Positions 6,930 to 34,556 of a stretch of DNA of 64,000 bases are shown in pieces. Location: assembly GCA_964649165.1 (NCBI GenBank), contig CAZYPC010000003.1, positions 11,430-75,429 on the forward strand, given 5' to 3'. The stretch comes from an uncultured Chryseobacterium sp. (GTDB taxonomy: Bacteria > Bacteroidota > Bacteroidia > Flavobacteriales_F > PHOS-HE28). Below the pieces are notes generated by a model. The model was not told where the DNA came from. It ran no database searches and was given only the letters and a program-made list of their open reading frames with translations. The stretch's first letter is position 1, and each line of letters begins with the position of its first letter. A program made the translations under genes and the position numbers.

Positions 6930-6945
6930 AGATGTGATGTCGGTA

Positions 6946-17930: not shown

Positions 17931-19232
17931 TCACGACCTGAGCGTGGCGTCCAGTGCTTCGCACCAGGCCGTTCCGATCCGGTCGATGTGCGCATCCGTG
18001 TGCGCTGCGCAGATAAAGCCTACCTCATATCCGGAAGGTGCCGCGTACACGCCGCGCTCAAGCAGGGCCGCGTGCAGTTTCGCGTAGCTCTTCATGCTGC
18101 CCGGGTCTATCGCGCTCGCTTCCTTGATGTGTTCGCCCCGCGCGAAGAAGCTCCAGAAGATCGAACCGAGGTGATCGACGTGGCAGTCGTATCCCTTCGA
18201 CCTCGCATGTGTGTTCACGCGGTCGCACAGCGTTGCGGTCTTCCGTTCCAGGTCCGGGTAGAATCCCGGTTTCGTGCATTCCTGCAATTGCGCGAGCCCG
18301 GCGGCCATCGCGACCGGATTGCCGCTGAGCGTGCCCGCTTGGTAGACCGGTCCGTCGGGCGCGATGTGCTTCATCAGTTCGAGCAGCCCGCCGTACGCCC
18401 CCACGGGCATGCCCCCGCCGATGATCTTGCCATAGGTCACCAGGTCCGGGATGATGCCGTAATGCGCCGTGGCCCCGCCGAAGCCGATGCGGAATCCGCT
18501 GATGACCTCATCGAAAATGAGCACGCCGCCATGCTTCGTGCACAGCTCACGTAGTTTCAGCAAGAACGACTTGTCCTGCAGGAGTAGCCCGTTGTTCGCC
18601 GGCACGGGTTCGATGATGGCGCAGGCGATGCGGTCCCCATGCTTCGCGAAGGCGGCTTCCAGTGCGGCCTCGTCGTTCAACGGAACGACGATGGTGAGCG
18701 CCGCGAGCGCTTCAGGAACGCCCGCCGAAGACGACGTGCCGAACGTCGCCAACCCGCTGCCCGCGTTCACCAACAGGCTGTCGAAGTGCCCGTGGTAGCA
18801 GCCGTCGAATTTGATGATGAGGTCCCGCTTCGTTGCACCGCGCGCAAGACGGATCGCGCTCATCACCGCCTCGGTACCGCTGCTGGTAAAGCGCATTCGC
18901 TGGATGAACGGGTTGCGCTCCATGATGAAGGAGGCCAGCGCATTCTCCTCCTCCGTCGGCGCACCGAACGTGCTGCCCTTGGCTGCTGTTCGTGTGATGG
19001 CCTCGACCACGCGGGGATGCGCGTGCCCGAGGATGAGCGGCCCCCAGCTATGGCACAGGTCGATGAAGCGGTTGCCATCGGCGTCGATGACCTCGGCGCC
19101 TTCGCCGCGCGCGAAGAACAGGGGCGTGCCACCGACACTCTTGAACGCACGGACGGGTGAATTCACCCCGCCAGGGAAGAGTTGAAGGGCCTTTTGGTAC
19201 AGCTGCTCGGAGCGTGTGCGTGCAATGGACAT
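17931..19232 (-). CDS. hemL: glutamate-1-semialdehyde 2,1-aminomutase
   Basis: 433 aa. N-terminal SEQLYQKALQLFPGGVNSPVRAF... PLP class-III aminotransferase fold. Full-length match to HemL architecture. Confidence 0.95.
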   Translation of the reverse strand: MSIARTRSEQLYQKALQLFPGGVNSPVRAFKSVGGTPLFFARGEGAEVIDADGNRFIDLCHSWGPLILGHAHPRVVEAITRTAAKGSTFGAPTEEENALASFIMERNPFIQRMRFTSSGTEAVMSAIRLARGATKRDLIIKFDGCYHGHFDSLLVNAGSGLATFGTSSSAGVPEALAALTIVVPLNDEAALEAAFAKHGDRIACAIIEPVPANNGLLLQDKSFLLKLRELCTKHGGVLIFDEVISGFRIGFGGATAHYGIIPDLVTYGKIIGGGMPVGAYGGLLELMKHIAPDGPVYQAGTLSGNPVAMAAGLAQLQECTKPGFYPDLERKTATLCDRVNTHARSKGYDCHVDHLGSIFWSFFARGEHIKEASAIDPGSMKSYAKLHAALLERGVYAAPSGYEVGFICAAHTDAHIDRIGTAWCEALDATLRS

Positions 19233-19284
19233 CGGTCAGGTTTCGGGGCGGCGAAGCTCCTACTTTCGTCGGCCTACCCGTCAC

Positions 19285-20595
19285 ATGTCCGTCACCTTCG
19301 AGAATTCCCTCGCCTTCGCCCAGCGTATGGACCAGCAGGATCCGCTGCGCGACCTCCGCAACGAGTTCTTGTTCCCGCAACACAACGGTACCCCCGTCAT
19401 CTATTTCACGGGCAACTCGCTCGGCCTTCAACCGAAGGGCGCCGCCGCCGCGTTGAAGCAGGAGCTGGACGATTGGGCCACCTTCGGGGTGGAAGGGCAC
19501 TTCCAGGCGAAGAATCCCTGGTATCCCTATCACGAGTTCTTCAGCGAGAGCCTGGCGCGCATCGTGGGTGCGAAGCCGACGGAAGTGGTCGCCATGAACG
19601 GGCTGACGACGAACCTTCACCTGCTTATGGTGTCGTTCTATCGGCCCAGCGGGAAGCGAACGAAGATCCTTTGTGAGGAACGACCGTTCCCGAGCGACAC
19701 GTATGCCTTCAAGTCACAAGCCGAATTCCATGGGCTCGACGCGAACAGCACGGTGATCGGCATGAAGCCGCGCGCCGGTGAGCATACGTTGCGCACCGAG
19801 GACATCGTGAAGCGCATCGAAGAACTCGGCGATGAACTCGCGCTCGTCTGCTTCGGTGGCGTGAACTTCCTGACCGGTCAGGCCTTTGATATGAGATCCA
19901 TCACCGAGGCCGGACAGCGGGTCGGTGCTGTGGTCGGCTTCGATCTCGCGCATGCTGCTGGCAACCTCAAGCTCGCGATGCACGATTGGAGCGTGGACTT
20001 CGCCTGTTGGTGCAGCTACAAGTACCTCAACAGCGGACCGGGAAGCATCGCGGGCGCGTTCGTTCACGAAAGACATCACCGCGAGAAGCTTCCGCGCTTC
20101 GCGGGCTGGTGGGGCCACGACAAGAACGAGCGCTTCCTGATGGAACCCGAGTTCAAACCGATGGCGAGCGCCGAAGCGTGGCAGTTGAGCAATGCCCCGG
20201 TCTTCAGCATGGCCGTGCATCGGGCGTCGCTCGACCTGTTCGACCGCGCAGGTATGGATGCGCTCCGCGCGAAGAGCGAACAGCTCACCGGTTTCCTGAA
20301 ACTGGTGCTGAATGAGATCTCGGTGGAGCACGCGAACCTCTTCGAGATCATCACGCCGAACGACCCTGCGGAACGCGGTTGCCAACTGAGCCTGCTTGTG
20401 CGCGAGAACGGAAGGGCACTCTTCGATGCGCTCACCAAGAACGGCGTGGTCGTCGACTGGCGCGAACCGAATGTCATCCGGATGGCGCCGGTGCCACTGT
20501 ACAACAGTTTTGAGGATGTGTTCCGTTGCGGTGAAGTGTTGAACAACGCATTGCGCGCTAACGCCTTCGCCGACGCTTCGGCGAGCAAAGCATGA
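19285..20595 (+). CDS. kynU: kynureninase
   Basis: Internal ATG (MSVTFENSLAFAQRMDQQDPL...) of ORF 19216..20595. Class-V aminotransferase fold with the conserved kynureninase N-terminal region. ATGA overlap with the downstream KMO gene. Confidence 0.85.
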   Translation: MSVTFENSLAFAQRMDQQDPLRDLRNEFLFPQHNGTPVIYFTGNSLGLQPKGAAAALKQELDDWATFGVEGHFQAKNPWYPYHEFFSESLARIVGAKPTEVVAMNGLTTNLHLLMVSFYRPSGKRTKILCEERPFPSDTYAFKSQAEFHGLDANSTVIGMKPRAGEHTLRTEDIVKRIEELGDELALVCFGGVNFLTGQAFDMRSITEAGQRVGAVVGFDLAHAAGNLKLAMHDWSVDFACWCSYKYLNSGPGSIAGAFVHERHHREKLPRFAGWWGHDKNERFLMEPEFKPMASAEAWQLSNAPVFSMAVHRASLDLFDRAGMDALRAKSEQLTGFLKLVLNEISVEHANLFEIITPNDPAERGCQLSLLVRENGRALFDALTKNGVVVDWREPNVIRMAPVPLYNSFEDVFRCGEVLNNALRANAFADASASKA

Positions 20596-21938
20596 GTAAC
20601 ATCACGATCGTCGGCGGTGGACTTGTGGGGAGCCTGCTCGCTGTCTTCCTCGCGAAACGCGGCCACAAGGTGAATGTGTTCGAGCGCCGCGGCGATCCAC
20701 GCAAGACGGATGTGTACGCGGGGCGCAGCATCAACCTCGTCGTTTCGCACCGCGGCTGGACGGCCTTGCGTGCGGCCGGTGTGGAGGATGCCGTGAAGGC
20801 GATCACCGTGCCCGTGTACGCGCGCATGATGCACGACCGCGATGGCAAGCTCAATCGTGTGCCGTACAGCATCGATAACCGCGCGATCTATTCGGTTTCA
20901 CGCGGCGAACTGAACCGTCGATTGCTCACGGAGGCGGAGAAGCTGCCGAACGTGAAGCTGTTCTTCGACCATAGATGTTTGGATGTCGATCTCGCGAACG
21001 CGGAATGTGTCTTCGAGAACGGCGGTGCGCGCGTGACCCGGAAGGCGGACGTTGTCTTCGGCAGCGATGGAGCATTCAGCGCCGTGCGCCAGAAGATGAT
21101 GCAAGGGCGCTTCACGTACAGCCAGGAGTACATCGAGCACGACTACAAGGAGGTGGCCTTCCCTGCGAACGCGGACGGTACGCCCAAGATGGACCCGCAG
21201 TGCCTGCACATCTGGCCGCGCCGCTACTACATGATGATGGGCCTGGCCAACCAGGACGGTGGCTTCACCGGTACGCTCTTCATGCCGAACACGCACACGG
21301 AGAACGCCCCGGGCTTCGATGTCGTGAAGACCGAGGAACAAGTGACGAAGTTCTTCGCTGACCATTTCGCGGATGCGATGCCCATCGTGCCTGACCTGGT
21401 GCAGCAATACCTGCGCAACCCTCAGAGCTCGCTTGTGATCATCCGCTGCAATCCGTGGCAGGTGAATGGCAAGGTGGCGCTGATCGGTGATGCGGCCCAC
21501 GCGATCGTTCCCTTCTACGGCGAGGGCATGAACGCGGGCTACGAGGATTGCAAGGTGCTGAACGACCTGCTGAACGAACACGGCGACGACAACTGGTCCA
21601 AGGTGCTCCCGCGCTACGCCGCCAAACGCAAGCCGAACGGGGACGCCATCGCCGACCTGTCACTCCGCAACTTCATCGAGATGCGCGACCTGGTGGCCGA
21701 TCCGAAGTTCCTGCTGCGCAAGAAGATCGAAGGCCACCTGCAAGCGAAGCACCCGGACCAATGGCTGCCGCTCTACAGCCAGGTGAAGTTCAGCGACATC
21801 GAGTACAAGGACGCGTGGAAGGAGGGGCTGCGGCACGACCGGATCATGGAGGAGGTGCTGGCGATGCCGGGGATCGAGGAGAAGTGGGGGAGTGAAGAGG
21901 TGGAGAAGAAGGCGCTGCAATTGATGCGGGCAACCTAG
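20592..21938 (+). CDS. kmo: kynurenine 3-monooxygenase (FAD-dependent)
   Basis: N-terminal FAD-binding IVGGGLVGSLLAVFLAKRG. About 450 aa. Translationally coupled to kynU. Confidence 0.8.
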   Translation: MSNITIVGGGLVGSLLAVFLAKRGHKVNVFERRGDPRKTDVYAGRSINLVVSHRGWTALRAAGVEDAVKAITVPVYARMMHDRDGKLNRVPYSIDNRAIYSVSRGELNRRLLTEAEKLPNVKLFFDHRCLDVDLANAECVFENGGARVTRKADVVFGSDGAFSAVRQKMMQGRFTYSQEYIEHDYKEVAFPANADGTPKMDPQCLHIWPRRYYMMMGLANQDGGFTGTLFMPNTHTENAPGFDVVKTEEQVTKFFADHFADAMPIVPDLVQQYLRNPQSSLVIIRCNPWQVNGKVALIGDAAHAIVPFYGEGMNAGYEDCKVLNDLLNEHGDDNWSKVLPRYAAKRKPNGDAIADLSLRNFIEMRDLVADPKFLLRKKIEGHLQAKHPDQWLPLYSQVKFSDIEYKDAWKEGLRHDRIMEEVLAMPGIEEKWGSEEVEKKALQLMRAT

Positions 21939-22477: not shown

Positions 22478-22605
22478 ACCTCTGAGCCCTGGCAGGTGGA
22501 TCTGACTCATCCCTTGATGGATCTTGGCGACCGGCTGTCGAAGCCATTCAGAATGACGACATCAGACGCGTGCGCGCCGCTATCTTTGGACAACCAACGC
22601 GCCCC

Positions 22606-22842
22606 ATGTCCGAGACCGAACTGAAGAAGCGCCTCATCGGCCGCATACAGCGTTCGCGGAACAGCGCCTTGTTGCGCGAGGCCTACCGCTTGATGGGAAC
22701 GGATGCTGCCGACCTTGAGCCGTACAAGCTGAGCAAGGAGCAGAAGGCGTCCATCGCGAAGGGTAAAAGGGACATCAAGGAGAGTCGCACGCTTTCCGCA
22801 GCGAAGGCGAACAAGGCCATTGATGAGTGGCTCGGCAAGTAG
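22606..22842 (+). CDS. putative type II antitoxin (addiction-module component)
   Basis: About 78 aa charged helical protein (internal ATG MSETELKK of ORF 22570..22842). 16-nt overlap with the downstream RelE/ParE-like gene. Confidence 0.5.
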   Translation: MSETELKKRLIGRIQRSRNSALLREAYRLMGTDAADLEPYKLSKEQKASIAKGKRDIKESRTLSAAKANKAIDEWLGK

Positions 22843-23120
22843 TCTGGTCGTTGAACGCGCAGAGGGAGAAGGTCGCCATTCTGCACTACTGGGTGGAATG
22901 CAACGGTTCCACGGCCTACAGCGCCAAACTTGATGAGATGTTCAGGTCCGCTTTGAGCCGCGTAGCCCAGCATCCAAAGCTCGGTCGGTCGACGAGTGAT
23001 CCTGACGTCCGGATGAAAGTCGTCGGCGAGTTCGAGATCTTCTATTCGCTCACGCAGGACACTGTACATGTGTTGTCGGTCTGGCGCGGCACAAGGGATC
23101 CTGTGGGCAGACCCTATTGA
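22827..23120 (+). CDS. type II toxin, RelE/ParE family
   Basis: 97 aa. ILHYWVE...VHVLSVWRGTRDP motifs characteristic of the ParE/RelE fold. Confidence 0.6.
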   Translation: MARQVVWSLNAQREKVAILHYWVECNGSTAYSAKLDEMFRSALSRVAQHPKLGRSTSDPDVRMKVVGEFEIFYSLTQDTVHVLSVWRGTRDPVGRPY

Positions 23121-23135
23121 CGCCACCCTGCGCGC

Positions 23136-23951
23136 ATGCCCTACCTCGCCCGCTTCAGCCTGAACGCTCCGCGCAGCCATCCGTTCCCGTTCGATATCCC
23201 TTCAGTGCGCTTCGCCAAGGACATCGGCCTCGGTGCGCCGGTGACCTGCTTCGTCGGAGACAACGGCACGGGCAAGTCCACCTTGTTGGAGGTGTTGGCC
23301 TACCGGCTCCAGCTTCCGCGCATGGATGGCTCCGGCTACGGTGGGCGAGGGTTCGCAGCGGCCCGCAAACTCTTGCCTTTCCTGACGGTGGAATTCGCCT
23401 TGCATCGTACCACGGGCTTTTTCTTCCGGGCGGAGGATTTCGGTGACCTGCTGAACAGTGTGGACCGGCAGGACCAACGGCTGCATGCTCAGCTGGAGGA
23501 GTTGCATGGCGATGTACCGGACCACATCATCGCGGCGATGAAGGACAGCTCGAACCACCAGTTGCATCGGGTGCGCAGGAACTATGGCCAGGAACTGCAG
23601 GGATTCTCCCACGGCGAGGCCTACCTGCACATCTTGCAGCAACAGGTCCGTGGGCCAGGGATCTACCTGCTGGATGAACCCGAAGCTGCTCTTTCACCGG
23701 CGCGGCAACTCGCCCTGCTCCATTTCATGCAGGAACATTTGAAGGAGCACCGGTCCCAGTTCATCATCGCTACCCATGCGCCCATCATCATGGCCTTCCC
23801 GAAAGCGCTGTTGTACGAGATCGCCCCGGATGGCATGGAACTGAAACGATTGGAGGAATTAGAGAACTACACGTTCACCAAAGCGTTCCTTGCTGACCCA
23901 GGACGGTTCCTGGCCGCGCTGGACAACCGGGATGCGCGGTCTTTCGGATGA
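23136..23951 (+). CDS. stand-alone ABC/SMC-type (AAA_21-like) ATPase
   Basis: Walker A GDNGTGKST. Q-loop/signature region. Walker B LLDEPEAALS. H-loop ATHAP. No transmembrane or partner domain. 271 aa. Confidence 0.6.
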   Translation: MPYLARFSLNAPRSHPFPFDIPSVRFAKDIGLGAPVTCFVGDNGTGKSTLLEVLAYRLQLPRMDGSGYGGRGFAAARKLLPFLTVEFALHRTTGFFFRAEDFGDLLNSVDRQDQRLHAQLEELHGDVPDHIIAAMKDSSNHQLHRVRRNYGQELQGFSHGEAYLHILQQQVRGPGIYLLDEPEAALSPARQLALLHFMQEHLKEHRSQFIIATHAPIIMAFPKALLYEIAPDGMELKRLEELENYTFTKAFLADPGRFLAALDNRDARSFG

Positions 23952-24015
23952 GCCGCATGTCGCTGTCAGCCCAAGTGGGGACCATAAATGAGAGGCGGCC
24001 GACTTCCTTTGGGCC

Positions 24016-24543
24016 GTGGACACCGCCGCGACGTTCAGAGCGCTGTACGATGCGCACGCCCGCATGGTCTACAACCTCTGCCTGAACCATCTGCGCAACG
24101 CGGATGAAGCGGCCGAAGCCACACAGGATGTCTTCGTGAAGGTCCACGAAAAGCTGTCGGGTTTCAAGGGCGATGCGACCCTGCGCACCTGGATCTACAG
24201 GATCACGATCAATACGTGTCTGGACCGGTTGAAGGCGCGCAAGCGGAAGAAACGCGCGTTGTTCGGCTGGTTGAGCCTTTCGGATGAACATGTCGAACGC
24301 GCCGCATCCGCCGTGTTCGATCACCCTGGCGTTGCCGCTGAGGATCGAGAGGCCCTCGAACGCTTGTTCGTGATGGTCGATGACCTGCCCGGACAGCAGC
24401 GGACCGCCTTGCTGCTGAAGACCTCCGAGGACCTGTCGATGGTCGCCATCGCCGAGGTGATGGGTATTTCATCGAAGGCGGTGGAATCGCTTTTGTCCCG
24501 CGCCCGTGCCAACCTGCGTCAACGCCTGCCCAACGAAGGATGA
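24016..24543 (+). CDS. RNA polymerase sigma-70 factor, ECF subfamily
   Basis: Region 2 (VKVHEKLSGFKG...WIYRITIN) and region 4 (LPGQQRTALLLKTSEDLSMVAIAEVMGIS) motifs. 175 aa. Confidence 0.85.
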   Translation: MDTAATFRALYDAHARMVYNLCLNHLRNADEAAEATQDVFVKVHEKLSGFKGDATLRTWIYRITINTCLDRLKARKRKKRALFGWLSLSDEHVERAASAVFDHPGVAAEDREALERLFVMVDDLPGQQRTALLLKTSEDLSMVAIAEVMGISSKAVESLLSRARANLRQRLPNEG

Positions 24544-24574
24544 ACACGTATCTGTCGTCAAACACCGCAAGAAC

Positions 24575-24847
24575 ATGGACACGAACGCCCCGGAAGACCT
24601 GCTGAAGCGCGTAGCGCGCGTCGATCCGCCACCGTTCCTGTTCACGCGCATAGAAGCCCGCCTGGCGAGCGGGGCATTGATGCGGGTGCCGCGCGCTCGA
24701 CTGGTCGCCGTGGCTTGTGGGCTGGCACTGCTGCTGCTGGCGAACGTGAGCGTGATCATGCGGGCGTCACGCGCTGCGGCCGGCCCATCTTTGTGCGACG
24801 TGGCCGAAGGAATGGGCATGAACGTGACCAACCAGCTCTACCAATGA
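24575..24847 (+). CDS. putative anti-sigma factor (single-pass membrane protein)
   Basis: Immediately downstream of the ECF sigma gene. About 90 aa with one TM helix LVAVACGLALLLLANVSVIM. Internal ATG of ORF 24506..24847. Confidence 0.45.
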   Translation: MDTNAPEDLLKRVARVDPPPFLFTRIEARLASGALMRVPRARLVAVACGLALLLLANVSVIMRASRAAAGPSLCDVAEGMGMNVTNQLYQ

Positions 24848-25296
24848 CGCGCACCCGCTTGTTGTCCATCGCGGTGGTGGCGCTGGTAGTGCTCAACCTG
24901 ACCACGCTCGGTGTGCTCTTCTTCCGAAGGCCGCCGCACCCGCACGGGCGGCATGAGGGACCGAGGGCGATCATCATCGAACGGCTGCAACTGGATGCGG
25001 ACCAGGTGAAGGTCTATGAGGGCTTGATCCGGGACCACCGTGGCAAGATCGAAGAGCTCGACCGGCACATGCTGGAGTTGCGCGGGCGCCTCTACGATGC
25101 TGAGTATCCCTTGTCCGCGGACTCGATCATCTCCCTCATCGGCGAAACGCAGAGCACGATCGAGCGTACGCACACCGACCACTTCGCGCGCATCCGTGCG
25201 ATCTGCCGGCCCGATCAGTTGCCGTTGTTCGACAGTATGACCAAAGATCTCGCCGGTTTCTTCCGGAACGGCCCACCACCGCTGAAAGAGCCGTAA
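24844..25296 (+). CDS. membrane-anchored periplasmic sensor-like protein (CnrX / Spy-CpxP-like, His-rich)
   Basis: ATGA overlap with the anti-sigma gene. N-terminal TM anchor followed by HPHGRHEGP and a helical LxxQ-containing domain (LQLDADQ, ICRPDQ). Third member of a sigma / anti-sigma / sensor trio. Confidence 0.4.
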   Translation: MTRTRLLSIAVVALVVLNLTTLGVLFFRRPPHPHGRHEGPRAIIIERLQLDADQVKVYEGLIRDHRGKIEELDRHMLELRGRLYDAEYPLSADSIISLIGETQSTIERTHTDHFARIRAICRPDQLPLFDSMTKDLAGFFRNGPPPLKEP

Positions 25297-25973
25297 TGAA
25301 GGCGCTGCTGACGATCGTGTTGGGCGCCGCCCTGAGCATTCCCGATACCCGCGCGCAACGCATCGCGTTCACCCCGGTGGTACGCGATGTTCCGCTTGTG
25401 CTGGACAAGCCGTTCGTGCTCGGTGATCAAGGGCCGGTCACCATCACGCAGTTCAAGTTCTATGTCGGTCAATTCACGTTCTACCGCGCAGGGAAGCCGC
25501 TCGTGTATGACCACAGCTACTATCTCATCGACGCCGCGGATACCACGACCTTCGATGTGGGGACGGTCTTTCGGCCAACTCCCATCGACTCGGTTTCCTT
25601 CCTGCTTGGTGTGGACAGCCTCACCAACGTGAGCGGCGTCTTCGGCGGTGACCTCGATCCGATCAAGGGCATGTACTGGACATGGAACAGCGGTTACATC
25701 AACCTGAAGCTGGAAGGCACGAGCCCACGTTCACCCTACGCGACGCATGCGTTCGAATTGCATTTGGGCGGCTACCTGCCACCGTTCCCTACGGTGCAGC
25801 GCGTAACCCTTCCATTGCACGGCCTCGGACCTTGGCACTTCGGTGTTGACGTTGTACCGCTTCTCGAGTCCGCTGACGTCAGTACGCGATGCAATGTGAT
25901 GTCCCCGGGAGAACAAGCGCTGCGACTTTCCAAGGCCTCGGTTACGATGTTCAAGAGCGATGCGCTGCGGTAA
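25296..25973 (+). CDS. MbnP-like periplasmic (copper-binding-type) protein, WxW motif
   Basis: Signal peptide MKALLTIVLGAALSIPDTRAQ. YWTWNSGY (WxW) motif. Predicted beta-rich. About 225 aa. Overlaps the downstream di-haem peroxidase gene by 14 nt. Confidence 0.5.
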   Translation: MKALLTIVLGAALSIPDTRAQRIAFTPVVRDVPLVLDKPFVLGDQGPVTITQFKFYVGQFTFYRAGKPLVYDHSYYLIDAADTTTFDVGTVFRPTPIDSVSFLLGVDSLTNVSGVFGGDLDPIKGMYWTWNSGYINLKLEGTSPRSPYATHAFELHLGGYLPPFPTVQRVTLPLHGLGPWHFGVDVVPLLESADVSTRCNVMSPGEQALRLSKASVTMFKSDALR

Positions 25974-26988
25974 ATGGTTGGTGATCCCGTTGACAGGCGT
26001 GCTGTGCGCCTTGATGGCCGCTGGAACCATGCCGGCACATCCGGTACAACTCGGGGTGCCGAAAGGTTGGCCCCCGATGAGCTACGATCTTTCTCGGAAC
26101 CCGTTGACGCAGGAGGGCATCGCGCTCGGCCGGAAGCTCTTCCATGATCCCCTTCTTTCGCTCGACAGCAGTACTTCCTGCTCGAGTTGTCATCTCTCCT
26201 ACACGGCCTTCAGCCACACGGACCACCAGCTGAGCCACGGCATCCACGACAGCATCGGCACGCGCAACGCGCCCGCCCTGATGAACCTGGCGTGGAGCAA
26301 GACCTTCATGTGGGACGGCGCGGTGAACCACCTGGATATGCAGCCCCTCGCGCCGATCAACCATTCCGGGGAGATGGGTGAGAGCACGCAGCATGTCGTG
26401 TTCAAACTGGAGAACAGCCGCACCTATCGTCGTCTTTTCGCGGAGGCGTTCGGTGACTCCATGATCCTGAGCGACCGCATGTTGAAAGCGCTCGCGCAGT
26501 TCCAGCTTTCGCTCGTGTCCGCAGGTTCCCGCTATGACCGGATGAAGGCCGGCGTCGAGCTTTTCACCGAACAAGAGCGGAACGGCTACCTGTTGTTCCA
26601 GGCGCATTGTAACACCTGCCACAAGGAGCCGCTCTTCACCACCGGCGAGTTCGCCAACAACGGCCTGCCCCCGGACAGTCTGCTGCGGGATGGCGGGCGC
26701 ATCCGCATCACGCACGACCCCGAGGATTCGCTGAAATTCAAGATCCCCACGTTGCGCAACGTCGAGTATTCGTTCCCCTACATGCACGACGGGCGGTTCA
26801 AACGGTTGCGCCAGGTGATCGACCACTACGCGAGCGGGATCATGACCTCCGGATCATCGGCCCCCCAGTTGAAGAAGCCGATCATGCTGACACCGGAGGA
26901 ACGCACGGACCTCGTGGCCTTCCTCCTCACCCTGAGCGACCGGGAGTTCGTGATGGACCCGGACCATGCGGCGCCCAGGAACTACTGA
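25960..26988 (+). CDS. di-haem cytochrome c peroxidase family protein (MauG/MbnH-like)
   Basis: Two CxxCH haem motifs (CSSCH, CNTCH). Signal peptide. 342 aa, with the overall CCP/MauG length and spacing. Confidence 0.8.
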   Translation: MRCGKWLVIPLTGVLCALMAAGTMPAHPVQLGVPKGWPPMSYDLSRNPLTQEGIALGRKLFHDPLLSLDSSTSCSSCHLSYTAFSHTDHQLSHGIHDSIGTRNAPALMNLAWSKTFMWDGAVNHLDMQPLAPINHSGEMGESTQHVVFKLENSRTYRRLFAEAFGDSMILSDRMLKALAQFQLSLVSAGSRYDRMKAGVELFTEQERNGYLLFQAHCNTCHKEPLFTTGEFANNGLPPDSLLRDGGRIRITHDPEDSLKFKIPTLRNVEYSFPYMHDGRFKRLRQVIDHYASGIMTSGSSAPQLKKPIMLTPEERTDLVAFLLTLSDREFVMDPDHAAPRNY

Positions 26989-27036
26989 GCGAAGGATGCG
27001 TGCGCGGACGTCGTCCAACGGTCACACCCCACCGAG

Positions 27037-28857
27037 ATGAAGTCCACCACCGCACTCGCCTGTCTTCTCCTGGCGTCCGGAACAAGGGCCCAGCTGGGCC
27101 CGAACATCACGCAATGGCTCGTGAACACGACGGGCACGACGGGTCGCCACTACGTATCCGGCAACAGCACACCGATCAATGACGCGGTGCAGGTGAACGT
27201 GCAGAACGTGAAGTACAGCGCGAGCCAGGTGTACGTGACCTGCACGGGCATCCCGTCGTATGTCACCGGCCCTTTCCTGGACGGGAATCCTTCGTCGGCA
27301 ACGAACCAGAACGCGATCTTCCGGTTGCCGCGCATCCCTGTACAGAACACCGGAACGCCCACCAATACCACGGGTGGCAACATCGGCATCTTCATCAATG
27401 GCGTCGCGTTCTTCGACTACCGCGACGGTGTTTCCTGGAGGAACGCCACGCAGCAATTGTGCGGAGGTCCGATCCAACCGATGTGCACGGGTGATGGTGT
27501 CTGGAACCGCGACGCCGTGCCTGCGGAGCGTGCGGGCTTCGATTGCTCGAAGGGCCACCCGGCCATGGGCAACTACCATCATCATCAGAACCCGAGCGCC
27601 TTCAACCTGGACATCAATGTGATCTCCACGGTATGCAACCTGTACGCGGCGGATGGTCTCTATGCCATCGACAGCACGCGACATTCCCCGTTGCTGGGAT
27701 TCGCGTATGATGGGTTCCCGGTGTATGGCGCTTACGGCTACGCGAATGCGGATGGCACCGGGGGTCTCAAGCGCATCCGCTCGAGCTACCAGGTCCGGAA
27801 CATCACAGTGCGCACGCACTACGCGAACGGCACGGATGTCACCGATGGCCCTGCCGTGAACACGACCTATCCGCTCGGTTACTTCCGCGAGGACTATGAG
27901 TACATCGCGCATGCGGAACCGTACTATCTGGATGCGCACAACGGCCGTTCCTGCGTAACCCCCGAATATCCCGGCGGCACGTACGCCTACTTCTGTTCCG
28001 TGGACGCGAACTGGAATTCAGCTTACCCGTACATCGTGGGGCCGACGTTCTACGGCGTGGTGACGGGAGCGAAGGTGGCCTCCATCGCTGAGACGGTCAC
28101 CACGTACAGTTGGGTGAAGCTGGCGGCACGCGTCTACCTGCAGGGACCATATGATAGCGGTTCCGGTCTGATGAACGATGGGCTGCGCGCTGCTTCATTG
28201 CTTCCGACCACACAGCCGTACACCGCCTTGGGATACAGCTTTACGGGGACAACGGTGACCAATGGGACAGTGGCTCCGGGAGTCTTCACCACGACCACGG
28301 GGAACAACGCCATCGTCGATCATGTGATCGTTGAATTGCGCAACGCCGTCACACCTTCCACCGTGCTCGCGAGTTGCCCCGCCCTGCTGCAGCGCGATGG
28401 TGATGTGGTGGCGCTCGATGGCCGATCCACACTTGTCATCGCCATCGCACCGGGCACCTACCACGTGGCCCTGCGTCATCGCAACCATCTCGGTGTGATG
28501 ACGGGCACCGCGGTCGCGCTGGGCAACAACTCCACCACGGTGGATCTCACGTCCACCGGAACAACGTTGTACGGTAGCAATGCCACAGCGACGGTAGGTG
28601 CAACGCGTTTGTTGTGGTCAGGTGATGTCAGCTACAACAAGACGCTCGCCTACACCGGCAGCGGGAACGATCGCGATCCCATCCTCGTGACAGTGGGCAG
28701 CACCACGCCGAACAACACGGTTGCGGCTTACAGCTCATCCGACGTCGACCTCGATGGTTCGGTCAAATACACCGGCAGCAACAACGACCGGGACCGTATC
28801 CTGGTGAATGTCGGCAGCACGACACCCAACAGCATCCAGAACGAACAACTCCCCTGA
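27037..28857 (+). CDS. secreted YHYH-domain (His-rich) protein with C-terminal dockerin-like repeats
   Basis: Signal peptide. GNYHHHQNPSAF, DSTRHSPLLGFAYDGFPVYGAYGY and YAYFC motifs. C-terminal repeated DxDxDG/NNDRD calcium-binding-like repeats. About 70 % identical to the next gene across the core. Confidence 0.6.
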   Translation: MKSTTALACLLLASGTRAQLGPNITQWLVNTTGTTGRHYVSGNSTPINDAVQVNVQNVKYSASQVYVTCTGIPSYVTGPFLDGNPSSATNQNAIFRLPRIPVQNTGTPTNTTGGNIGIFINGVAFFDYRDGVSWRNATQQLCGGPIQPMCTGDGVWNRDAVPAERAGFDCSKGHPAMGNYHHHQNPSAFNLDINVISTVCNLYAADGLYAIDSTRHSPLLGFAYDGFPVYGAYGYANADGTGGLKRIRSSYQVRNITVRTHYANGTDVTDGPAVNTTYPLGYFREDYEYIAHAEPYYLDAHNGRSCVTPEYPGGTYAYFCSVDANWNSAYPYIVGPTFYGVVTGAKVASIAETVTTYSWVKLAARVYLQGPYDSGSGLMNDGLRAASLLPTTQPYTALGYSFTGTTVTNGTVAPGVFTTTTGNNAIVDHVIVELRNAVTPSTVLASCPALLQRDGDVVALDGRSTLVIAIAPGTYHVALRHRNHLGVMTGTAVALGNNSTTVDLTSTGTTLYGSNATATVGATRLLWSGDVSYNKTLAYTGSGNDRDPILVTVGSTTPNNTVAAYSSSDVDLDGSVKYTGSNNDRDRILVNVGSTTPNSIQNEQLP

Positions 28858-28880: not shown

Positions 28881-30257
28881 ATGAACAGAATATTCCCGCT
28901 CATTATGGCCCTGGCTATGTCCGCCTTCGCCTCCGCACAGACCGATCCGGTGATCATTGATTGGTTGTTCAACACAACGGGCATCACCGGCTCGCACTAT
29001 GTGTCCGGTAACTCGACGCCGATCCAGGATGCGGCGCAGGCGAACGTGCAGCAAGTGCAGTATTCGGACGACTGGTCTTACGTACACACGCAGGGCATTC
29101 CCGCATACATCACCGGACCGTTCCTGGACGGCAACCCGAACCAGGCGGGCGGGCAGAACGCCATCTTCAGGATCCCGCGTACGCCACAGCCCAACCAAGG
29201 CACCTTGGATGTGACCACTGGCGGTGATATCGGTGTGTTCATCAACGGGGTCGCGCTGTTCGATTTCCGCGATGGCTGCGGCTGGAACCCCAACACCAAC
29301 GCGCTTTGCGGAGGTCCCGGCAATCCGCCCTGTCCTGGTCCGCCCGGCCAACTGCAGGATTGGAACCGCGATGCGATCGTGGCCGAACGGGCAGGTTTCG
29401 ATTGTGCCAAAGGGCACCCGCAACAACAAGGGACTTACCACCACCATCAGAACCCCAGCGCGTTCAACCTCGACCTCACGGTGCTCTCCAACGTCTGCGA
29501 CCTCTACCTCGCCGATGGTCTTTATGCCATCGACAGCACGGAGCATTCACCGCTGCTGGGCTTCGCGTTCGATGGCTATCCGATCTATGGAGCATACGGC
29601 TATGCGAACGTGGACGGCACAGGCGGCATCACGCGCATCCGGTCGGGCTATCAGTGGCGGAACATCACCACGCGCACTACGCATGCCGATGGTACCGATG
29701 TGAGCGATGGCCCTGCTGTGAACGAGACCTACCCGATCGGCTATTTCCGCGAGGACTATGAATTCCTGACCCATCCGGAGCCTTTCTACCTGGACGAACA
29801 CAACGGTCGCTTCTGTGTGACGCCGGAGTTTCCCTCCGGCACGTACGCCTACTTCTGCACGGTCGACGCCGCTTGGAACTCGGTCTATCCCTATGTCGTT
29901 GGCCCAACCTTCTACGGTGTGAAGACGGCGACCCTGGTAACGACCATCACGGAGGCTGTGACCACCTACGATCCCTTGACCGCGGCTGTGGCTTCCATCG
30001 CGCCGGAAGATGACCGTGTGACCGTGTTCCCCAACCCCGGTGGCGATCTGATCGCGGTGCAGGTGCATGGCATCGTTCGCGAGAACCTGCCCATCGCACT
30101 TTACGACATGAGCGGCAAGCTCGTGCGTTCGGAGGTGATCAAGCAGGGAAGTACGATCTGGTACCTGGACACCCGCACCCTGTACGATGGCTTGTACAAC
30201 GTGCGCATCGGACAGGGCCGTGGGGCCATCTGCACCCAGGTGCAGGTGGTCCATTGA
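28881..30257 (+). CDS. secreted YHYH-domain (His-rich) protein with T9SS C-terminal sorting domain
   Basis: Paralog of 27037..28857 (GTYHHHQNPSAF etc.). C-terminal VFPNPGGDL...LYDMSGKLV...GLYNVRIGQ... CTD. Confidence 0.65.
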   Translation: MNRIFPLIMALAMSAFASAQTDPVIIDWLFNTTGITGSHYVSGNSTPIQDAAQANVQQVQYSDDWSYVHTQGIPAYITGPFLDGNPNQAGGQNAIFRIPRTPQPNQGTLDVTTGGDIGVFINGVALFDFRDGCGWNPNTNALCGGPGNPPCPGPPGQLQDWNRDAIVAERAGFDCAKGHPQQQGTYHHHQNPSAFNLDLTVLSNVCDLYLADGLYAIDSTEHSPLLGFAFDGYPIYGAYGYANVDGTGGITRIRSGYQWRNITTRTTHADGTDVSDGPAVNETYPIGYFREDYEFLTHPEPFYLDEHNGRFCVTPEFPSGTYAYFCTVDAAWNSVYPYVVGPTFYGVKTATLVTTITEAVTTYDPLTAAVASIAPEDDRVTVFPNPGGDLIAVQVHGIVRENLPIALYDMSGKLVRSEVIKQGSTIWYLDTRTLYDGLYNVRIGQGRGAICTQVQVVH

Positions 30258-30334
30258 TGGATCACACGTCGCGGGGTTGACACTTCGGCGTGGTCGGTGC
30301 GCGTTGTTGGGACGGGACAGCCCAACTTCGTGGC

Positions 30335-31174
30335 ATGAAGCGCTTGGTCCTGATCGGTTGTTTGTTCGTGCCCGTGTTGCTCTCAGCGCAGGGGTTGATG
30401 GAACGCAAGCACCCGGACATTTTCCCGCTCGATGGCAAGATGAAGCGCAGCGGCTTCTTCATTGCGCCGGGCGTGACATGGGCGCTTGCACCGTTCAAGG
30501 ACCGGGAGGAACACGATGAATTCGGTTCGGATACGATGGTCGATGCGGTGTATCACGGCATTGGCAAGCTCGGGCTGTATCTCGAAGCGGGCTGGTTCAT
30601 CTCCACGCGCGATCCAGTGATCATCGACTATTGGGACTTCGGGCTGGCGTACAAACAATTGAAAGGGCGGGAAGAGTCGGAGGGCTCGTTCGCACGGGGT
30701 GATAGCATTGGCCAGTGGTTCAGTGAGGGGGACTTCAACGATCAGCATCTCACCCTTGCGATCAACGCGAACAAACTGTTCTGCGTGCGCGACTATCGGT
30801 TCTTCCAGTTCAGCCTGGGGGCCAACGTGGACTGGCGCTTCGGAGAGGGCCGTGACTTCGAGGGCTTCTTCGTGCCCGACTCACAGGACTTTCCGCCGGA
30901 GTTCATCGGCCAGGCGCACGCCAAACTCGGCTTCGGCTTCAAGCTCACGCAGCAGTTGATGATCATTCCCGCGATCGAGACACCTTTCTTCAGCGTAATG
31001 CCGGAGGATCAGGGTTTCGGACGCCTTCAGTGGTTCAACACCACGTACCGCCCGCTCATCTTCAGTGTCCGTTTCCTCTTCCTCCGCTATCCCAACGGAT
31101 GGGCATGCCCTCCGGTGAAGAACAACGAGTTCGAACGGCACAAGGTGGTGAACCCGGAGTACAAGCGGAGGTAG
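30335..31174 (+). CDS. hypothetical exported / outer-membrane-like protein
   Basis: Internal ATG with signal peptide MKRLVLIGCLFVPVLLSAQG. Alternating aromatic / beta-strand-like pattern. C-terminal F-rich end. Confidence 0.45.
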   Translation: MKRLVLIGCLFVPVLLSAQGLMERKHPDIFPLDGKMKRSGFFIAPGVTWALAPFKDREEHDEFGSDTMVDAVYHGIGKLGLYLEAGWFISTRDPVIIDYWDFGLAYKQLKGREESEGSFARGDSIGQWFSEGDFNDQHLTLAINANKLFCVRDYRFFQFSLGANVDWRFGEGRDFEGFFVPDSQDFPPEFIGQAHAKLGFGFKLTQQLMIIPAIETPFFSVMPEDQGFGRLQWFNTTYRPLIFSVRFLFLRYPNGWACPPVKNNEFERHKVVNPEYKRR

Positions 31175-31178
31175 TGCG

Positions 31179-34100
31179 TCAACGTGGCGTGTGCGCCTGA
31201 ACGGTCTTCGTATCGGTCGGTCCCAGGACCAGTATCGGCCCGCTGTTGTTCAATACCAGGAGGCATTCGCCTCGACCGGCGATCGCGATGGGAAGCACGT
31301 GACGCGTATCGTATGGAATGGAGATGCCGCTTGCCCGACCCTCGACCGGAGTCAGCCCTCCCTTGCCGTCGCCGCGCAATAAGAGACCCATGCTCGCGTC
31401 GTACCGCGGGGTCTCAGCCTCGGCGCCGTAGTGGTTGCCGGCCACCAACAGATCCATCCGGCCATCCTTGTCGGCATCCAGCATCCGGAGAGATCGCGCA
31501 GCGGAGACCTGCGCGGCCATCGGCAACGGCCTTGCCTCGAAATGCCCGTTGACGTTGATGAACAGCGCACTCGCGAAGCTGGTCGCCTTCAACCGCAGAG
31601 CGTCATTGAGCGCCGCGCCATAGATGTTCTCCAAGGTGGCATCGGCGAATGCCTTGTAGGTAGGGAACCGGCCTTGGATGAACGGCATCTGTCGGCTTGA
31701 ACACTCGCGACCGCGCACCGGCAATTCACACTGGTCACCCGTTTTCGCGAGCACGATGTCGTTGGTGCCGCTGTGGTCCAGATCCCCCATATAGACCTGG
31801 AGCGGCTTGTCGTTGGACGGATGGAACTTGTTGTTCAGGCCGATGTTGCCTGCCGCCAGGTCAAGATCGCCGTCGCCATCGATGTCACCGACGGTCATTC
31901 CCTGCCACCAGCCGGTCAGCGACGTGTCGAGCACACTGGAGGAGATGTCCTTGAATGCACTGCCCGTGTTCTTGAGCACACGTATGGGCATCCATTCGCC
32001 GCATAGCAGGAGTTCCGCACGCTTGTCGTTGTCGATGTCCGAGAACAGCGCTTGCGTGATGAGTCCTGGTCGTGGAAGTGAGGTCAGCCATGTGGATGAA
32101 ACGTCCTTGAAGGTGCCGTGGTCGTTCAACAGCACCTGACTTGCCGGCGGGGAAGGCCAGGCCCCGGGAACGTTCCGGCCTCCGACGAAGAGATCGGGAT
32201 CACCGTCGCCATCGATGTCATCGGAGGCGATGGCCGATGCGCTCACCCGGAGGTCCGGCAGGGCCTGTTCGGCGTAGTCGAACGCACCGTGGCCATCGTT
32301 GGTGAACATCCGGGCCCGGTACCGCTCATCCCCCGGAGGGAATTCCGTGCTACCAGCGGCCAGGTACAGGTCCGCGTCATGGTCGCCATCCGCGTCGAAG
32401 AAAAGCGCGCCGTTGAACTCGGAGGTTCGGAAGACGTTCCACGGTTGCGCGGGTGCCGGAGCGAATTGTCCGGTGCTTTTCTGGAGGAGCAACAGGCATG
32501 GACTTCCGGCCGAAGCCGTCAGGAAAAGGTCGTCGAGACCATCACCGTTCACGTCGGCTACCGCAGCCGCAGGGCCGTGCATGCTCTGGCGGTGGGGCAG
32601 AAGGGACTCCGCCTTGAACTCATCGTAGGCGTTCTCATGATGACCGAAGCGCAATCCCAAATCACCGGCGATCTCCCTGAAAAGTGGTCGAGTGCGCGTT
32701 GTGCGCGGTCGTTCCCGCAACGATGAACGATCGACGGTGAGCCGTTCGTTCCGTTCCGGACCGATCAGCACTGTCTGCCGGCCATCAGGCCAATCGATCA
32801 CCACGGAATCGATGTGGTCATCGGGAACGCCGAAATGCAACACCGGTTCCACGCTGCCCTGGTACCCGCGCGCGGGGAACAGGGCACACACCTGGCGGCC
32901 GCTGGCCGAATGGAGTTCGGCTGACGCGCCAGTGGCGAACGGGTTTTTCGCCTCGCCTTTCAAGACCAGTTGCAGATAACCCGCGCCCGTGTTCTCGCGC
33001 GTGAGATTGCGCACCACCGTCGCCGGGGAGTTCACATTGACCGTCACCAGGTCCAGGTCCCCGTCCAGGTCAAGATCCGCGTACGTGCCCCCGTTGCTCA
33101 AGGTCTTCTGGTGATAGCCCCATTCGTCCATCGCCTTGGTGAACGTGAGATCATGCGCGTTGCGGAAGACCATCTTCTCCGGAACGTGCGTGGGCGCGAG
33201 GTCCAGGAGCGGTTCGAAAGCCACCTGCTTGCTGGAAGCACCGGTGAATTTGCGCACTTGGTCCCTGAAATCGTTGTTGCCCACATCCCGTGCGATGCCA
33301 TTGGTGACGAACAGGTCCTTCCACCCATCGTTGTCCAGGTCGACGAACAAAGGGGCCCAGCTCCAGTCGGTGCGGTCCACTCCGGCCATCTGCGCCACCT
33401 CGCTCCAGGTGCCATCACCGTTGTTGCGCTGGAGCGTGTTGATCATGTACTGGTAGTGCATTCCACGGTCCACCATCGCGTCGAACTGCCCCGGTGCCAT
33501 GCTCGCCATGTTCTCCTTGTTCAGCTTGTGGTCGCCGGGGGTCATGTCCAATACGCACAGGTCCGGATCGCCATCGTTGTCGTAGTCCGCGCGATCGATG
33601 CCCATGCTGAAGTAGGACGTGTGCTTCAGCGCCTGCCGGGAGATGTCGGTGAAGTGAGGGATGGCACCGGGTCCGCGTGTGCCGTCGTTCACCATCATGA
33701 GGTCGGGCGTGTAGAAATCGTTCGTCACATAGATGTCCAACAGACCATCCGCGTTCAGATCGCCCAGTGCGGCACCAAGGCCATAGTGGTGGCTCGCCAA
33801 CCCGGCTTCCAACGTCCCATCGACAAAGTGGCCACTGCCGTCATTCAGGTACAATTTGTTCGACGTGCCCGGGTCGTAAGGGGGCTTGGGGCCTGCGAGC
33901 TCCTTCCCGAGGGGGAGGAAGTCGGATCGGTGTGAAGCGATGAAGCAGTCGAGGTCGCTGTCTCGGTCCACATCGGCGAAGTAGGCCATCGTGTTGTGCC
34001 CTTCGTCCGCCAGACCGGCAGTGGCCGCATCTTCCTTGAACCGGCCTTCGCCGAGGTTGATGAACAACTTGTTGCGGCGGGTCGCCGCCGCCCACCCAGC

Positions 34101-34556
34101 GGGGCCGGATGCGCAGACATAGATGTCCAGGCGACCGTCCGCGTTCACGTCCGCCATGCTCACCCCCGTTGCCCAGATGGCGTCGATGTTGAACCCGGCA
34201 TCCTCAGATATGTCCTTGAACCTCATCCCGCCGAGATTCTTGTACAGGGCGCCTCCACTCCGGTAGCTCGCGAAGGCGAGGTCCGCCAGGCCGTCCCCAT
34301 CAATGTCACCGGCCGCGACGCCACCACCGTTGTACATGTAGAGGTAGCGGAAGTAATTGGCCTCGTTGTCCTCGATGATGGTGTTGCTGAAGGTTATTCC
34401 CGTGCTGTCTGGGCCTAGAACTTCCAGGCGGGTGCCGGACTTCGGAGCAACTGAAGTGTCTTGCCTGGGTGCTGGCCGCTCGCACGCGGCAATGAGGAGC
34501 GCGACGATGAAGCATGCGCTACAACCGTTCACAAAGGACCTCCGGGCTCCGTTCAT
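31179..34556 (-). CDS. CRTAC1-family lipoprotein with FG-GAP/VCBS repeats and ASPIC/UnbV C-terminal domain
   Basis: Lipobox LIAAC. Multiple DxDGDGxxD FG-GAP calcium-binding repeats. C-terminal UnbV/ASPIC-like region. 1125 aa. Confidence 0.75.
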   Translation of the reverse strand: MNGARRSFVNGCSACFIVALLIAACERPAPRQDTSVAPKSGTRLEVLGPDSTGITFSNTIIEDNEANYFRYLYMYNGGGVAAGDIDGDGLADLAFASYRSGGALYKNLGGMRFKDISEDAGFNIDAIWATGVSMADVNADGRLDIYVCASGPAGWAAATRRNKLFINLGEGRFKEDAATAGLADEGHNTMAYFADVDRDSDLDCFIASHRSDFLPLGKELAGPKPPYDPGTSNKLYLNDGSGHFVDGTLEAGLASHHYGLGAALGDLNADGLLDIYVTNDFYTPDLMMVNDGTRGPGAIPHFTDISRQALKHTSYFSMGIDRADYDNDGDPDLCVLDMTPGDHKLNKENMASMAPGQFDAMVDRGMHYQYMINTLQRNNGDGTWSEVAQMAGVDRTDWSWAPLFVDLDNDGWKDLFVTNGIARDVGNNDFRDQVRKFTGASSKQVAFEPLLDLAPTHVPEKMVFRNAHDLTFTKAMDEWGYHQKTLSNGGTYADLDLDGDLDLVTVNVNSPATVVRNLTRENTGAGYLQLVLKGEAKNPFATGASAELHSASGRQVCALFPARGYQGSVEPVLHFGVPDDHIDSVVIDWPDGRQTVLIGPERNERLTVDRSSLRERPRTTRTRPLFREIAGDLGLRFGHHENAYDEFKAESLLPHRQSMHGPAAAVADVNGDGLDDLFLTASAGSPCLLLLQKSTGQFAPAPAQPWNVFRTSEFNGALFFDADGDHDADLYLAAGSTEFPPGDERYRARMFTNDGHGAFDYAEQALPDLRVSASAIASDDIDGDGDPDLFVGGRNVPGAWPSPPASQVLLNDHGTFKDVSSTWLTSLPRPGLITQALFSDIDNDKRAELLLCGEWMPIRVLKNTGSAFKDISSSVLDTSLTGWWQGMTVGDIDGDGDLDLAAGNIGLNNKFHPSNDKPLQVYMGDLDHSGTNDIVLAKTGDQCELPVRGRECSSRQMPFIQGRFPTYKAFADATLENIYGAALNDALRLKATSFASALFINVNGHFEARPLPMAAQVSAARSLRMLDADKDGRMDLLVAGNHYGAEAETPRYDASMGLLLRGDGKGGLTPVEGRASGISIPYDTRHVLPIAIAGRGECLLVLNNSGPILVLGPTDTKTVQAHTPR

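Follow-up and report, generated by a model that had tools for sequence, protein, structure and literature searches.

The putative sigma / anti-sigma / sensor cassette

The locus described here lies in a 64,000-nucleotide (nt) stretch of contig CAZYPC010000003.1 from an uncultured Chryseobacterium sp., hereafter the window. It consists of a three-gene cassette for a sigma factor of the extracytoplasmic function (ECF) type, a presumed anti-sigma factor and a membrane-anchored putative periplasmic sensor, followed by genes for exported proteins (Table 1). The sigma gene is separated from the second open reading frame (ORF) by 31 nt (24544-24574), and an ATGA overlap at 24844-24847 couples the putative anti-sigma gene to the sensor gene. 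At 25294-25298 (TAATG) the TAA of the sensor gene overlaps the ATG of an MbnP-family gene, which in turn shares 14 nt with the gene of a MauG/MbnH-like di-haem peroxidase. This layout, with its 90-aa single-pass and 150-aa anchored proteins and its place directly upstream of the MbnPH-like and YHYH genes, had been given in a preliminary description of this DNA, and all of its parts were present in the sequence. The order of a sigma gene and genes for ~90 and ~150 aa was kept in ~20 of the ~20 independent loci retrieved from other genomes (related loci are numbered L002-L024), so the arrangement is not due to chance. In every locus the anti-sigma gene occupied position +1 of the sigma gene, and in nearly all of them its translation was coupled to that of the sensor gene.

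The sigma protein carries the Pfam domains Sigma70_r2 and Sigma70_r4_2 and matched TIGR02937 with 94 bits (cut-off 43). Judged by these domains, it is an ECF (group 4) sigma factor of the sigma-70 family. The closest solved sigma factors were SigW (2e-15), AlgU-type proteins and RpoE, and CnrH came seventh at 1e-11. The start at 24016 is secure, since the equivalent codon is GTG or ATG in nine orthologues and one has AGG at Met17. Met17 was ruled out as an alternative start by this AGG and because residues 7-16 evolve as coding sequence; had it held, the conserved motif upstream of the gene would have been left free as an ordinary promoter.

The 90-aa protein has one hydrophobic span (residues 43-61) with eight lysine or arginine residues on its N-terminal side and one on its C-terminal side, so that its predicted topology is N-in, C-out. 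Alignments of 14 and 21 homologues showed a cytoplasmic N-terminus of ~40 aa with a conserved ELLxRIxRVDPPPFLFTRIEARL and an invariant Asn57 in the transmembrane helix. The predicted periplasmic tail of ~27 aa ends in a conserved MGxNxSNQLY. An HxxxCxxC motif was absent from the protein. When the 14-homologue profile was compared with the PDB sequences, a set that includes the CnrH entry 4CXF, no CnrY was retrieved; class II anti-sigma domains carry little sequence signature. By its position and architecture the 90-aa protein is a putative anti-sigma factor.

The third protein matched PF13801 (Metal_resist) with 31.5 bits, at a gathering threshold of 29.2. Its anchor comprises 22 hydrophobic residues (6-27), which is too long for a cleaved signal peptide, and is followed by an HPHGRHEGP linker (32-40). 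Sequence searches against the PDB were weak, with chance matches only for the single sequence and Spy (E 0.12, whole domain) as the best match of a 19-sequence profile, and a comparison of folds was therefore needed. The AlphaFold (AF2) model built on the 19-sequence alignment had a predicted local distance difference test (pLDDT) score of 85 and consisted of the transmembrane helix and helices 39-48, 52-83, 92-120 and 123-141. In a Foldseek search of the PDB the 15 best folds were all CnrX or NccX, while CpxP and ZraP, among others, appeared lower down. The target-normalised TM-scores were 0.65-0.73 for the CnrX chains, at ~20% identity, and 0.56 for NccX. An hhalign comparison of the sensor profile with CnrX (the sequence of 3ZG1 apart from that entry's M123A mutation) was end-to-end, with an E-value of 2e-4. 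As modelled, the third protein is a CnrX-fold member of the CnrX/CpxP/Spy (PF13801/LTXXQ) superfamily.

The family of this sensor is large: an exhaustive search returned 6598 clusters, counted at 50% identity, at E <= 1e-3 and 677 at E <= 1e-30. Residue conservation was counted in an alignment of 155 representatives. Q54, H65 and H113 were present in all of them, Q125, L48 and N18 (inside the transmembrane helix) in 154 each, F114 in 153, C121 in 150, E107 in 148 and H110 in 138. The LxxQ-type repeats reported earlier correspond to two LTXXQ-like motifs, LDADQ (50-54) and CRPDQ (121-125), which align to the motifs of Spy. The histidine-rich HPHGRH linker, earlier put forward as a feature of the sensor, did not hold up as one, as H32, H34 and H37 were kept in 52, 16 and 30 of the 155 sequences. 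By the helix limits of the model, the antiparallel hairpin would bring H65 and H110 to one level, and H113, a turn away, would share their face. The geometry is thus reasonable for a His65/His110/His113 site that is displaced by about one turn relative to that in CnrX.

Asn18 of the sensor lies 12 residues and Asn57 of the anti-sigma factor 14 residues into the respective transmembrane helix. This pair of invariant intramembrane Asn residues at similar depth and the conserved anti-sigma tail suggest that the two proteins form a transmembrane and periplasmic complex. CnrX and CnrY have been described as such a complex (PMC6851896).

Promoter motif and neighboring genes

A candidate promoter motif was found by comparing the short intergenic regions before the YHYH genes across loci. 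The strict pattern GA(A/G)GGAT-N14-CGT(C/A) had three matches in the window, at an expectation of 0.10, and two of these are the sites P1 and P2 of Table 1. The -35 element of P1 overlaps the stop codon of the sigma gene and its -10 element lies in the 31-nt gap, with the ATG of the anti-sigma gene 15 nt downstream. P2 is located in the 48-nt gap before the gene of YHYH protein 1 (YHYH1), the ATG of which is 21 nt downstream. In a weight matrix both sites scored 29.9 bits, against a maximum of 16.9 in 30 shuffles. The 16 non-redundant related loci (144 kb) contained 24 strict matches, all on the operon strand, at an expectation of 0.24, and the motif sat at places equivalent to P1 and P2. A P2-equivalent site preceded a YHYH or MauG-like gene in L002, L003, L006, L012, L014, L016, L017, L020, L022, L023 and L024. 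The consensus of 29 aligned sites was C-GAAGGAT-N13-T-CGTC-n-AA, with an uninformative spacer. The -35 block is read as GAA GGA TGA in the window and as cGA GGG ATT in L012; as its frame varies between loci in this way, the constraint acts on the DNA and not on the protein.

From this co-occurrence we infer that the sigma factor of the window uses P1 and P2. In our reading, the anti-sigma, sensor, MbnP and MauG-like genes are transcribed from P1 and the YHYH genes from P2. The weight matrix found no site before the MbnP gene, the gene of YHYH protein 2 (YHYH2) or the last gene of the cluster. The sigma gene would lie outside the ECF-dependent units, so that induction would raise the inhibitor and the sensor and not the sigma factor, which amounts to negative feedback. 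Regulation of the neighboring locus by the cassette, as had been proposed before, is supported by the tight or overlapping genes, the conserved synteny and the shared motif before the anti-sigma and YHYH genes. The two places at which an ECF-type promoter was to be sought differed in outcome: the motif (P2) was present before 27037 and absent before 25296.

The third strict match, GAAGGATgtgcgcgtgttaggCGTC at 62752-62728 (-), is antisense in the 3' end of a tilS-like gene and scored 13.2 bits, which is at chance level; no convincing gene lies downstream of it. A weight-matrix match at 53347 falls inside a 1747-aa gene, and both matches were left out of the regulon. The canonical ECF pattern GAAC-N14-18-CGTC matched 20 times in the window, at an expectation of 18.8, and none of the matches was relevant. 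A scan of 23-32 kb returned no sigma-70 promoter, and terminator-like hairpins were at or below chance.

Further copies of the motif were seen in related loci. L016 has one (6943-6967) before a small soluble DUF4890/LTXXQ gene, and L014 has an imperfect one (~7100-7130, CGCAT for CGTAT) at the same place; both are relatives that carry Sco1. The regulon there would include a Spy/CpxP-like paralogue of the sensor. At L012 8474-8486 and L020 2162-2174 the sensor gene's last codons and stop codon (CCA CCG AGG GAT TGA) share bases with the -35 element of the second promoter. This overlap may be part of the reason why the sensor family has a conserved PP-R-D/E C-terminus. The distant Cyclobacteriaceae cassettes (L007, L008) lack the GAAGGAT-N14-CGTC motif.

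Table 1. Genes and sequence elements of the locus (window coordinates).
Feature	Position	Strand	Remarks
Conserved non-coding motif before sigma start	23986-24015	+	…CCGACTTCCTTTGGGCC-GTG; TTCCTTTG at 24004-24011
ECF sigma gene	24016-24543	+	GTG start, 175 aa
ECF-type promoter P1 (candidate)	24535-24559	+	-35 GAAGGAT 24535-24541, 14-nt spacer, -10 CGTC 24556-24559
Second ORF, putative anti-sigma factor	24575-24847	+	ATG start, 90 aa, single-pass
Third ORF, CnrX-fold putative periplasmic sensor	24844-25296	+	150 aa, membrane-anchored
MbnP-family exported protein	25296-25973	+	225 aa, PF20243 E 8e-35, WTW motif
MauG/MbnH-like di-haem cytochrome c peroxidase	25960-26988	+	342 aa, PF03150 E 1e-49
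ECF-type promoter P2 (candidate)	26991-27015	+	-35 GAAGGAT 26991-26997, 14-nt spacer, -10 CGTC 27012-27015
Exported YHYH-domain protein 1 (YHYH1)	27037-28857	+	606 aa, PF14240 E 1e-53
YHYH-domain protein 2 (YHYH2)	28881-30257	+	458 aa, PF14240 and PF18962 (type IX secretion C-terminal sorting domain)
Exported protein, family unassigned, last gene of the cluster	30290-31174	+	conserved, syntenic

Another conserved element, also written …TGAcC-n-CcTTCCTTTG, abuts the start codon of the sigma gene. The sequence (G)CTGA(C/A)C-n-C(T/C)TTCCTTTG is common to seven loci, sits 4-5 nt 5' of the GTG and keeps TTCCTTTG invariant in all seven despite differing flanks, while two loci carry another sequence in its place. 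No RNA structure was detected in it with RNAalifold (-0.26 kcal/mol), and further copies in the window showed no excess above chance. An upstream mini-ORF of three codons (ATG-nnn-GGn-TGA), seen in five loci, was ruled out as its stop codon is absent from the window. We take the motif to be similar to the TAnnTTTG -7 element of Bacteroidetes, and it may serve the sigma gene as a non-ECF promoter of its own, so that the mRNA would be leaderless or nearly so. Rfam and tRNA scans returned no matches. Further upstream, an antitoxin-like small ORF overlaps a ParE-family toxin gene (22827-23120), and a gene for an AAA_21/AAA_15 ATPase (23136-23951) lies directly upstream of the sigma gene. This neighborhood (22570-23951) is not conserved among the related loci.

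Relatives of the locus were found in Flavobacteriales and in other Bacteroidota metagenome-assembled genomes, and the proteins of the window occur identically in several public assemblies. In the clade of the window the sigma, anti-sigma and sensor genes are followed, in this order, by the MbnP gene, the MauG-like gene, one or two YHYH genes and a conserved gene without assigned function, with the genes overlapping or a few bases apart. Relatives with 40-45% sensor identity have the cassette followed by genes for a 255-aa YHYH protein, a MORN-repeat protein, Sco1/SenC and a small DUF4890/LTXXQ protein. In other relatives MbnP, MauG-like and YHYH genes lie downstream, or a MauG-like gene alone. 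Other neighbors, or none in view, were met only beside far more distant sensors (26-31% identity; L007, L008 of Cyclobacteriaceae, L013). In L007 (6616-7077) and L008 (6607-7092) an extra soluble PF13801/LTXXQ gene is placed just upstream of the sigma gene.

The downstream products all have export signals. The MbnP-family protein, with its WTW motif, is encoded beside the MauG-like di-haem peroxidase, which is the arrangement of an MbnP/MbnH pair. The NCBIfam equivalog models TIGR04052 (MbnP-family protein) and TIGR04039 (MbnH family, 201 bits on the MauG-like protein at a cut-off of 363) both scored below their cut-offs, and the two proteins of the window are thus divergent members. Copper is bound at the WxW motif of MbnP through a kynurenine made by MbnH (PMC11951088). 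Genes for a kynureninase (KYNU_C) and a kynurenine 3-monooxygenase-like flavin adenine dinucleotide (FAD) monooxygenase overlap each other at 19216-21938, ~3.5 kb upstream of the MbnP/MbnH-like pair. The known chemistry of such pairs yields protein-bound kynurenine; this vicinity is probably a coincidence.

YHYH2 has more than 7000 close homologues. In 20 homologues the YHYH domain (window 28935-29990) showed many invariant His and Cys residues, including KGHP-x5-YHHHQNP, and this pattern suggests a metal or redox site. AlphaFold gave a pLDDT of 35 for the domain, the alignment being too shallow and too similar. The C-termini of the two proteins differ, with the type IX sorting domain on YHYH2 and a longer extension on YHYH1 that ends in a tandem repeat (…SGNDRDPILVTVGSTTPNN… / …SNNDRDRILVNVGSTTPNS…). 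For the last gene no Pfam or NCBIfam match was found, and its product is 52-86% identical to proteins encoded at the equivalent place in L002, L003 and L006. A convergent gene (31179-34556, -) for a 1125-aa FG-GAP / UnbV_ASPIC repeat protein forms the right end of the locus.

Copper is the likely signal of the system and the most economical guess, given the MbnP/MbnH-like and Sco1 neighbors; Sco1/SenC is a copper chaperone. Another metal, an envelope signal or a redox signal instead of copper is possible, the last because MauG-like enzymes use peroxide.

Proposed mechanism and alternative explanations

Taken together, we favor, with moderate confidence, the interpretation of the cassette as an ECF module made up of a sigma factor, an anti-sigma factor in the membrane and a periplasmic sensor anchored there, which controls the adjacent, probably copper-handling exported proteins. 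The signalling logic of CnrX, CnrY and CnrH, which has been described as conformational and with no proteolytic step, serves as the precedent (PMC6851896). The sigma factor would be made from its own non-ECF promoter and be kept at the membrane by the 90-aa protein, through its short cytoplasmic N-terminus. This protein would pair with the CnrX-fold sensor through the transmembrane helices, with an invariant Asn in each, and through its periplasmic C-terminal tail. A periplasmic signal would then alter the complex of sensor and anti-sigma factor and free the sigma factor. The fold, the invariant histidines and the gene neighbors point to metal sensing by the third protein, and the signal would most likely be a metal ion, most likely copper, at the H65/H110/H113 site about one helical turn from the site in CnrX. 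The freed sigma factor would transcribe from the two GAAGGAT-N14-CGTC promoters. Through P1 the anti-sigma factor, the sensor, MbnP and the MauG/MbnH-like protein would be made, which combines negative feedback with output, and through P2 both YHYH proteins and probably the product of the last gene.

Several observations weigh against this interpretation. The PF13801 match of the sensor spans residues 14-86 only and includes the transmembrane helix. The Foldseek E-values were modest (4e-3), and helical hairpins may match by chance. In the hhalign alignment one of the five Ni/Co ligands of CnrX is kept (H119 as H113), with H42, H46, E63 and M123 replaced by R41, I45, I62 and I117. The charge around the transmembrane helix of the sensor was +1.8 on the N-terminal and +2.0 on the C-terminal side, which leaves the orientation undecided. 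The 90-aa protein had no relative in Pfam, NCBIfam or the PDB, so that no known anti-sigma domain is detectable in it. Upstream of the sigma gene the weight matrix reached at best -5.5 bits within ~165 nt of 24016, and the lack of an ECF motif there is unusual for ECF systems, in which positive autoregulation from such a promoter is common though not universal. As for copper, its assignment is guilt by association, the literature on YHYH/PF14240 describes no function, and in L007 the downstream gene is TonB-dependent-receptor-like and unrelated to the neighbors of the window.

The third protein could also be a periplasmic chaperone or feedback inhibitor like CpxP, Spy or ZraP, a regulon product that would dampen the pathway or shield envelope proteins, with the signal being perceived by the anti-sigma factor or through regulated proteolysis. 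The genes cpxP, spy and zraP are induced by their own pathways, and the sensor gene, which lies downstream of P1, would itself be induced in the same way. Both LTXXQ motifs are retained, Spy was the best PDB sequence match of the profile (E 0.12), and related loci carry extra soluble LTXXQ/DUF4890 paralogues, of which one follows a third copy of the motif. An uncleaved 22-residue anchor with an invariant Asn is, however, unlike Spy, CpxP and ZraP, and the folds of CnrX and NccX came well ahead of those of CpxP and ZraP. The invariant histidines are specific to the family and absent from Spy and the soluble paralogues, and the gene is translationally coupled to that of the anti-sigma factor in nearly every locus. 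We therefore consider a role as a chaperone of this kind unlikely.

The release of the sigma factor could also proceed as with RseA and RseB, where the sensor would mask the tail of the anti-sigma factor and the signal would expose it to a periplasmic protease, followed by regulated intramembrane proteolysis. The gene order of the cassette equals that of rpoE-rseA-rseB, in which a sigma gene is followed by those of the anti-sigma factor and its periplasmic partner. The conserved C-terminal ...SNQLY(Q/HE) of the 90-aa protein is a feature of the type that tail-specific or PDZ proteases would read. A gene for a site-1 or site-2 protease is, however, absent from the cluster and from the related loci examined, the periplasmic tail measures merely ~27 residues, and the model described for the CnrX fold is conformational and without proteolysis (PMC6851896). 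A proteolytic release thus appears improbable to us, and the conformational one remains our preferred explanation.

That the helical domain of the sensor is cytoplasmic (N-out) and acts on the sigma and anti-sigma factors from inside, as the equal frequency of positive charges after and before the transmembrane helix would allow (RRPPHPHGRH in the window, and the 155 relatives), is very improbable, because every relative with a solved structure (CnrX, NccX, CpxP, Spy, ZraP) is periplasmic, the N-terminal flank of the helix is denser in charge (1.9 K/R in 5 residues) and the predicted periplasmic tail of the anti-sigma factor needs a partner there. By homology, the domain is thus expected in the periplasm.

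Significance and comparison with known systems

Bacteria have in the ECF sigma factors one of their main signalling systems. For most ECF groups, especially in Bacteroidota, we know of no signal, promoter or regulon. For the family of ~6600 sensor clusters a promoter and a regulon are now predicted and candidate ligand residues named, and two poorly understood sets of exported proteins, MbnP/MbnH outside methanotrophs and the YHYH proteins, are linked to a dedicated sensor. For environmental Flavobacteriales, this opens a way to study how copper is acquired or handled. The circuit is also uncommon in that the sigma gene lies outside the reach of its own promoter and the genes of the anti-sigma factor and the sensor lie within it.

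More tentatively, the locus might be the founding example of a widespread, unstudied copper-sensing ECF pathway of Bacteroidota. If this is true, four features would be new: a CnrX-fold sensor in which the Ni/Co site is exchanged for a His65/His110/His113 site; a transmembrane Asn-Asn contact that passes the signal to a minimal anti-sigma factor belonging to a new sequence family; a sigma factor that is not autoregulated, with a GAAGGAT-N14-CGTC promoter driving its inhibitor and sensor; and a regulon of MbnP/MbnH, YHYH and Sco1 proteins. For MbnPH pairs outside methanotrophs the pathway would then provide a first regulator, and it would tie the very abundant YHYH domain, the function of which has not been described, to copper handling.

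Among the known systems, the methanotroph MbnI/MbnR/MbnT proteins beside MbnPH, which represent FecIRA-type ECF control, also include an ECF sigma / anti-sigma pair in a copper context (PMC3621798). Their anti-sigma factor is of the FecR type and a TonB-dependent transducer acts as the sensor, whereas the window has no transducer and instead a CnrX-fold inner-membrane sensor. CpxP, Spy and ZraP share with the window sensor the superfamily, the two LTXXQ-type motifs, the helical hairpin and, by prediction in the case of the window sensor, the induction by the pathway. They are soluble with a cleaved signal peptide, in contrast to the window sensor with its anchor, its intramembrane Asn and its own invariant histidines.

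The ECF classification 2.0 (Casas-Pastor et al. 2021, PMC7826278) contains two groups, ECF281 and ECF290, in which an anti-sigma factor at +1 and a PF13801 protein at +2 have been described, from genome context only, and the latter position is also that of the sensor in the window. The anti-sigma factor of ECF281 is a zinc-finger protein and that of ECF290 is RskA-like; the one in the window is neither and matched no Pfam family.

The closest comparison is with CnrYXH of Cupriavidus metallidurans (ECF291, Ni/Co sensing), which the arrangement had been said to mirror. Both systems consist of an ECF sigma factor, a single-pass anti-sigma factor (putative in the window) of ~90-95 aa and an anchored helical sensor of ~150 aa, and both have a short cytoplasmic N-terminus on the anti-sigma factor and a sensor that is dimeric-type in layout. 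CnrX is the best structural match of the window sensor, with its ligand H119 kept as H113. The periplasmic C-terminal tail of CnrY docks on the sensor (PMC6851896), and the tail of the window anti-sigma factor could do likewise. The likeness thus stood for the architecture and the sensor fold. It did not extend to the ligands, four of five being replaced, nor to the sigma group, the anti-sigma sequence and the gene order. H42, H46, E63 and M123 of CnrX are lost, and the window sensor has a new invariant H65 and a near-invariant H110. The sigma factor is as close to SigW and RpoE as to CnrH, or closer, and the anti-sigma factor has no detectable similarity to CnrY, although its size and topology fit. 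The genes are ordered sigma / anti-sigma / sensor instead of cnrY-cnrX-cnrH, and the ECF promoter follows the sigma gene, whereas cnrYp precedes cnrYXH. The predicted targets are MbnP, MauG-like and YHYH exported proteins in place of a resistance-nodulation-division (RND) efflux pump (cnrCBA), and the host phylum, Bacteroidota, is a different one. The module of the window would work like CnrYXH and is not a member of it: it is a widespread, uncharacterized variant, from Bacteroidota, of the design that combines a sigma factor, an anti-sigma factor and a CnrX-type sensor, and both its promoter and its regulon are now predicted.

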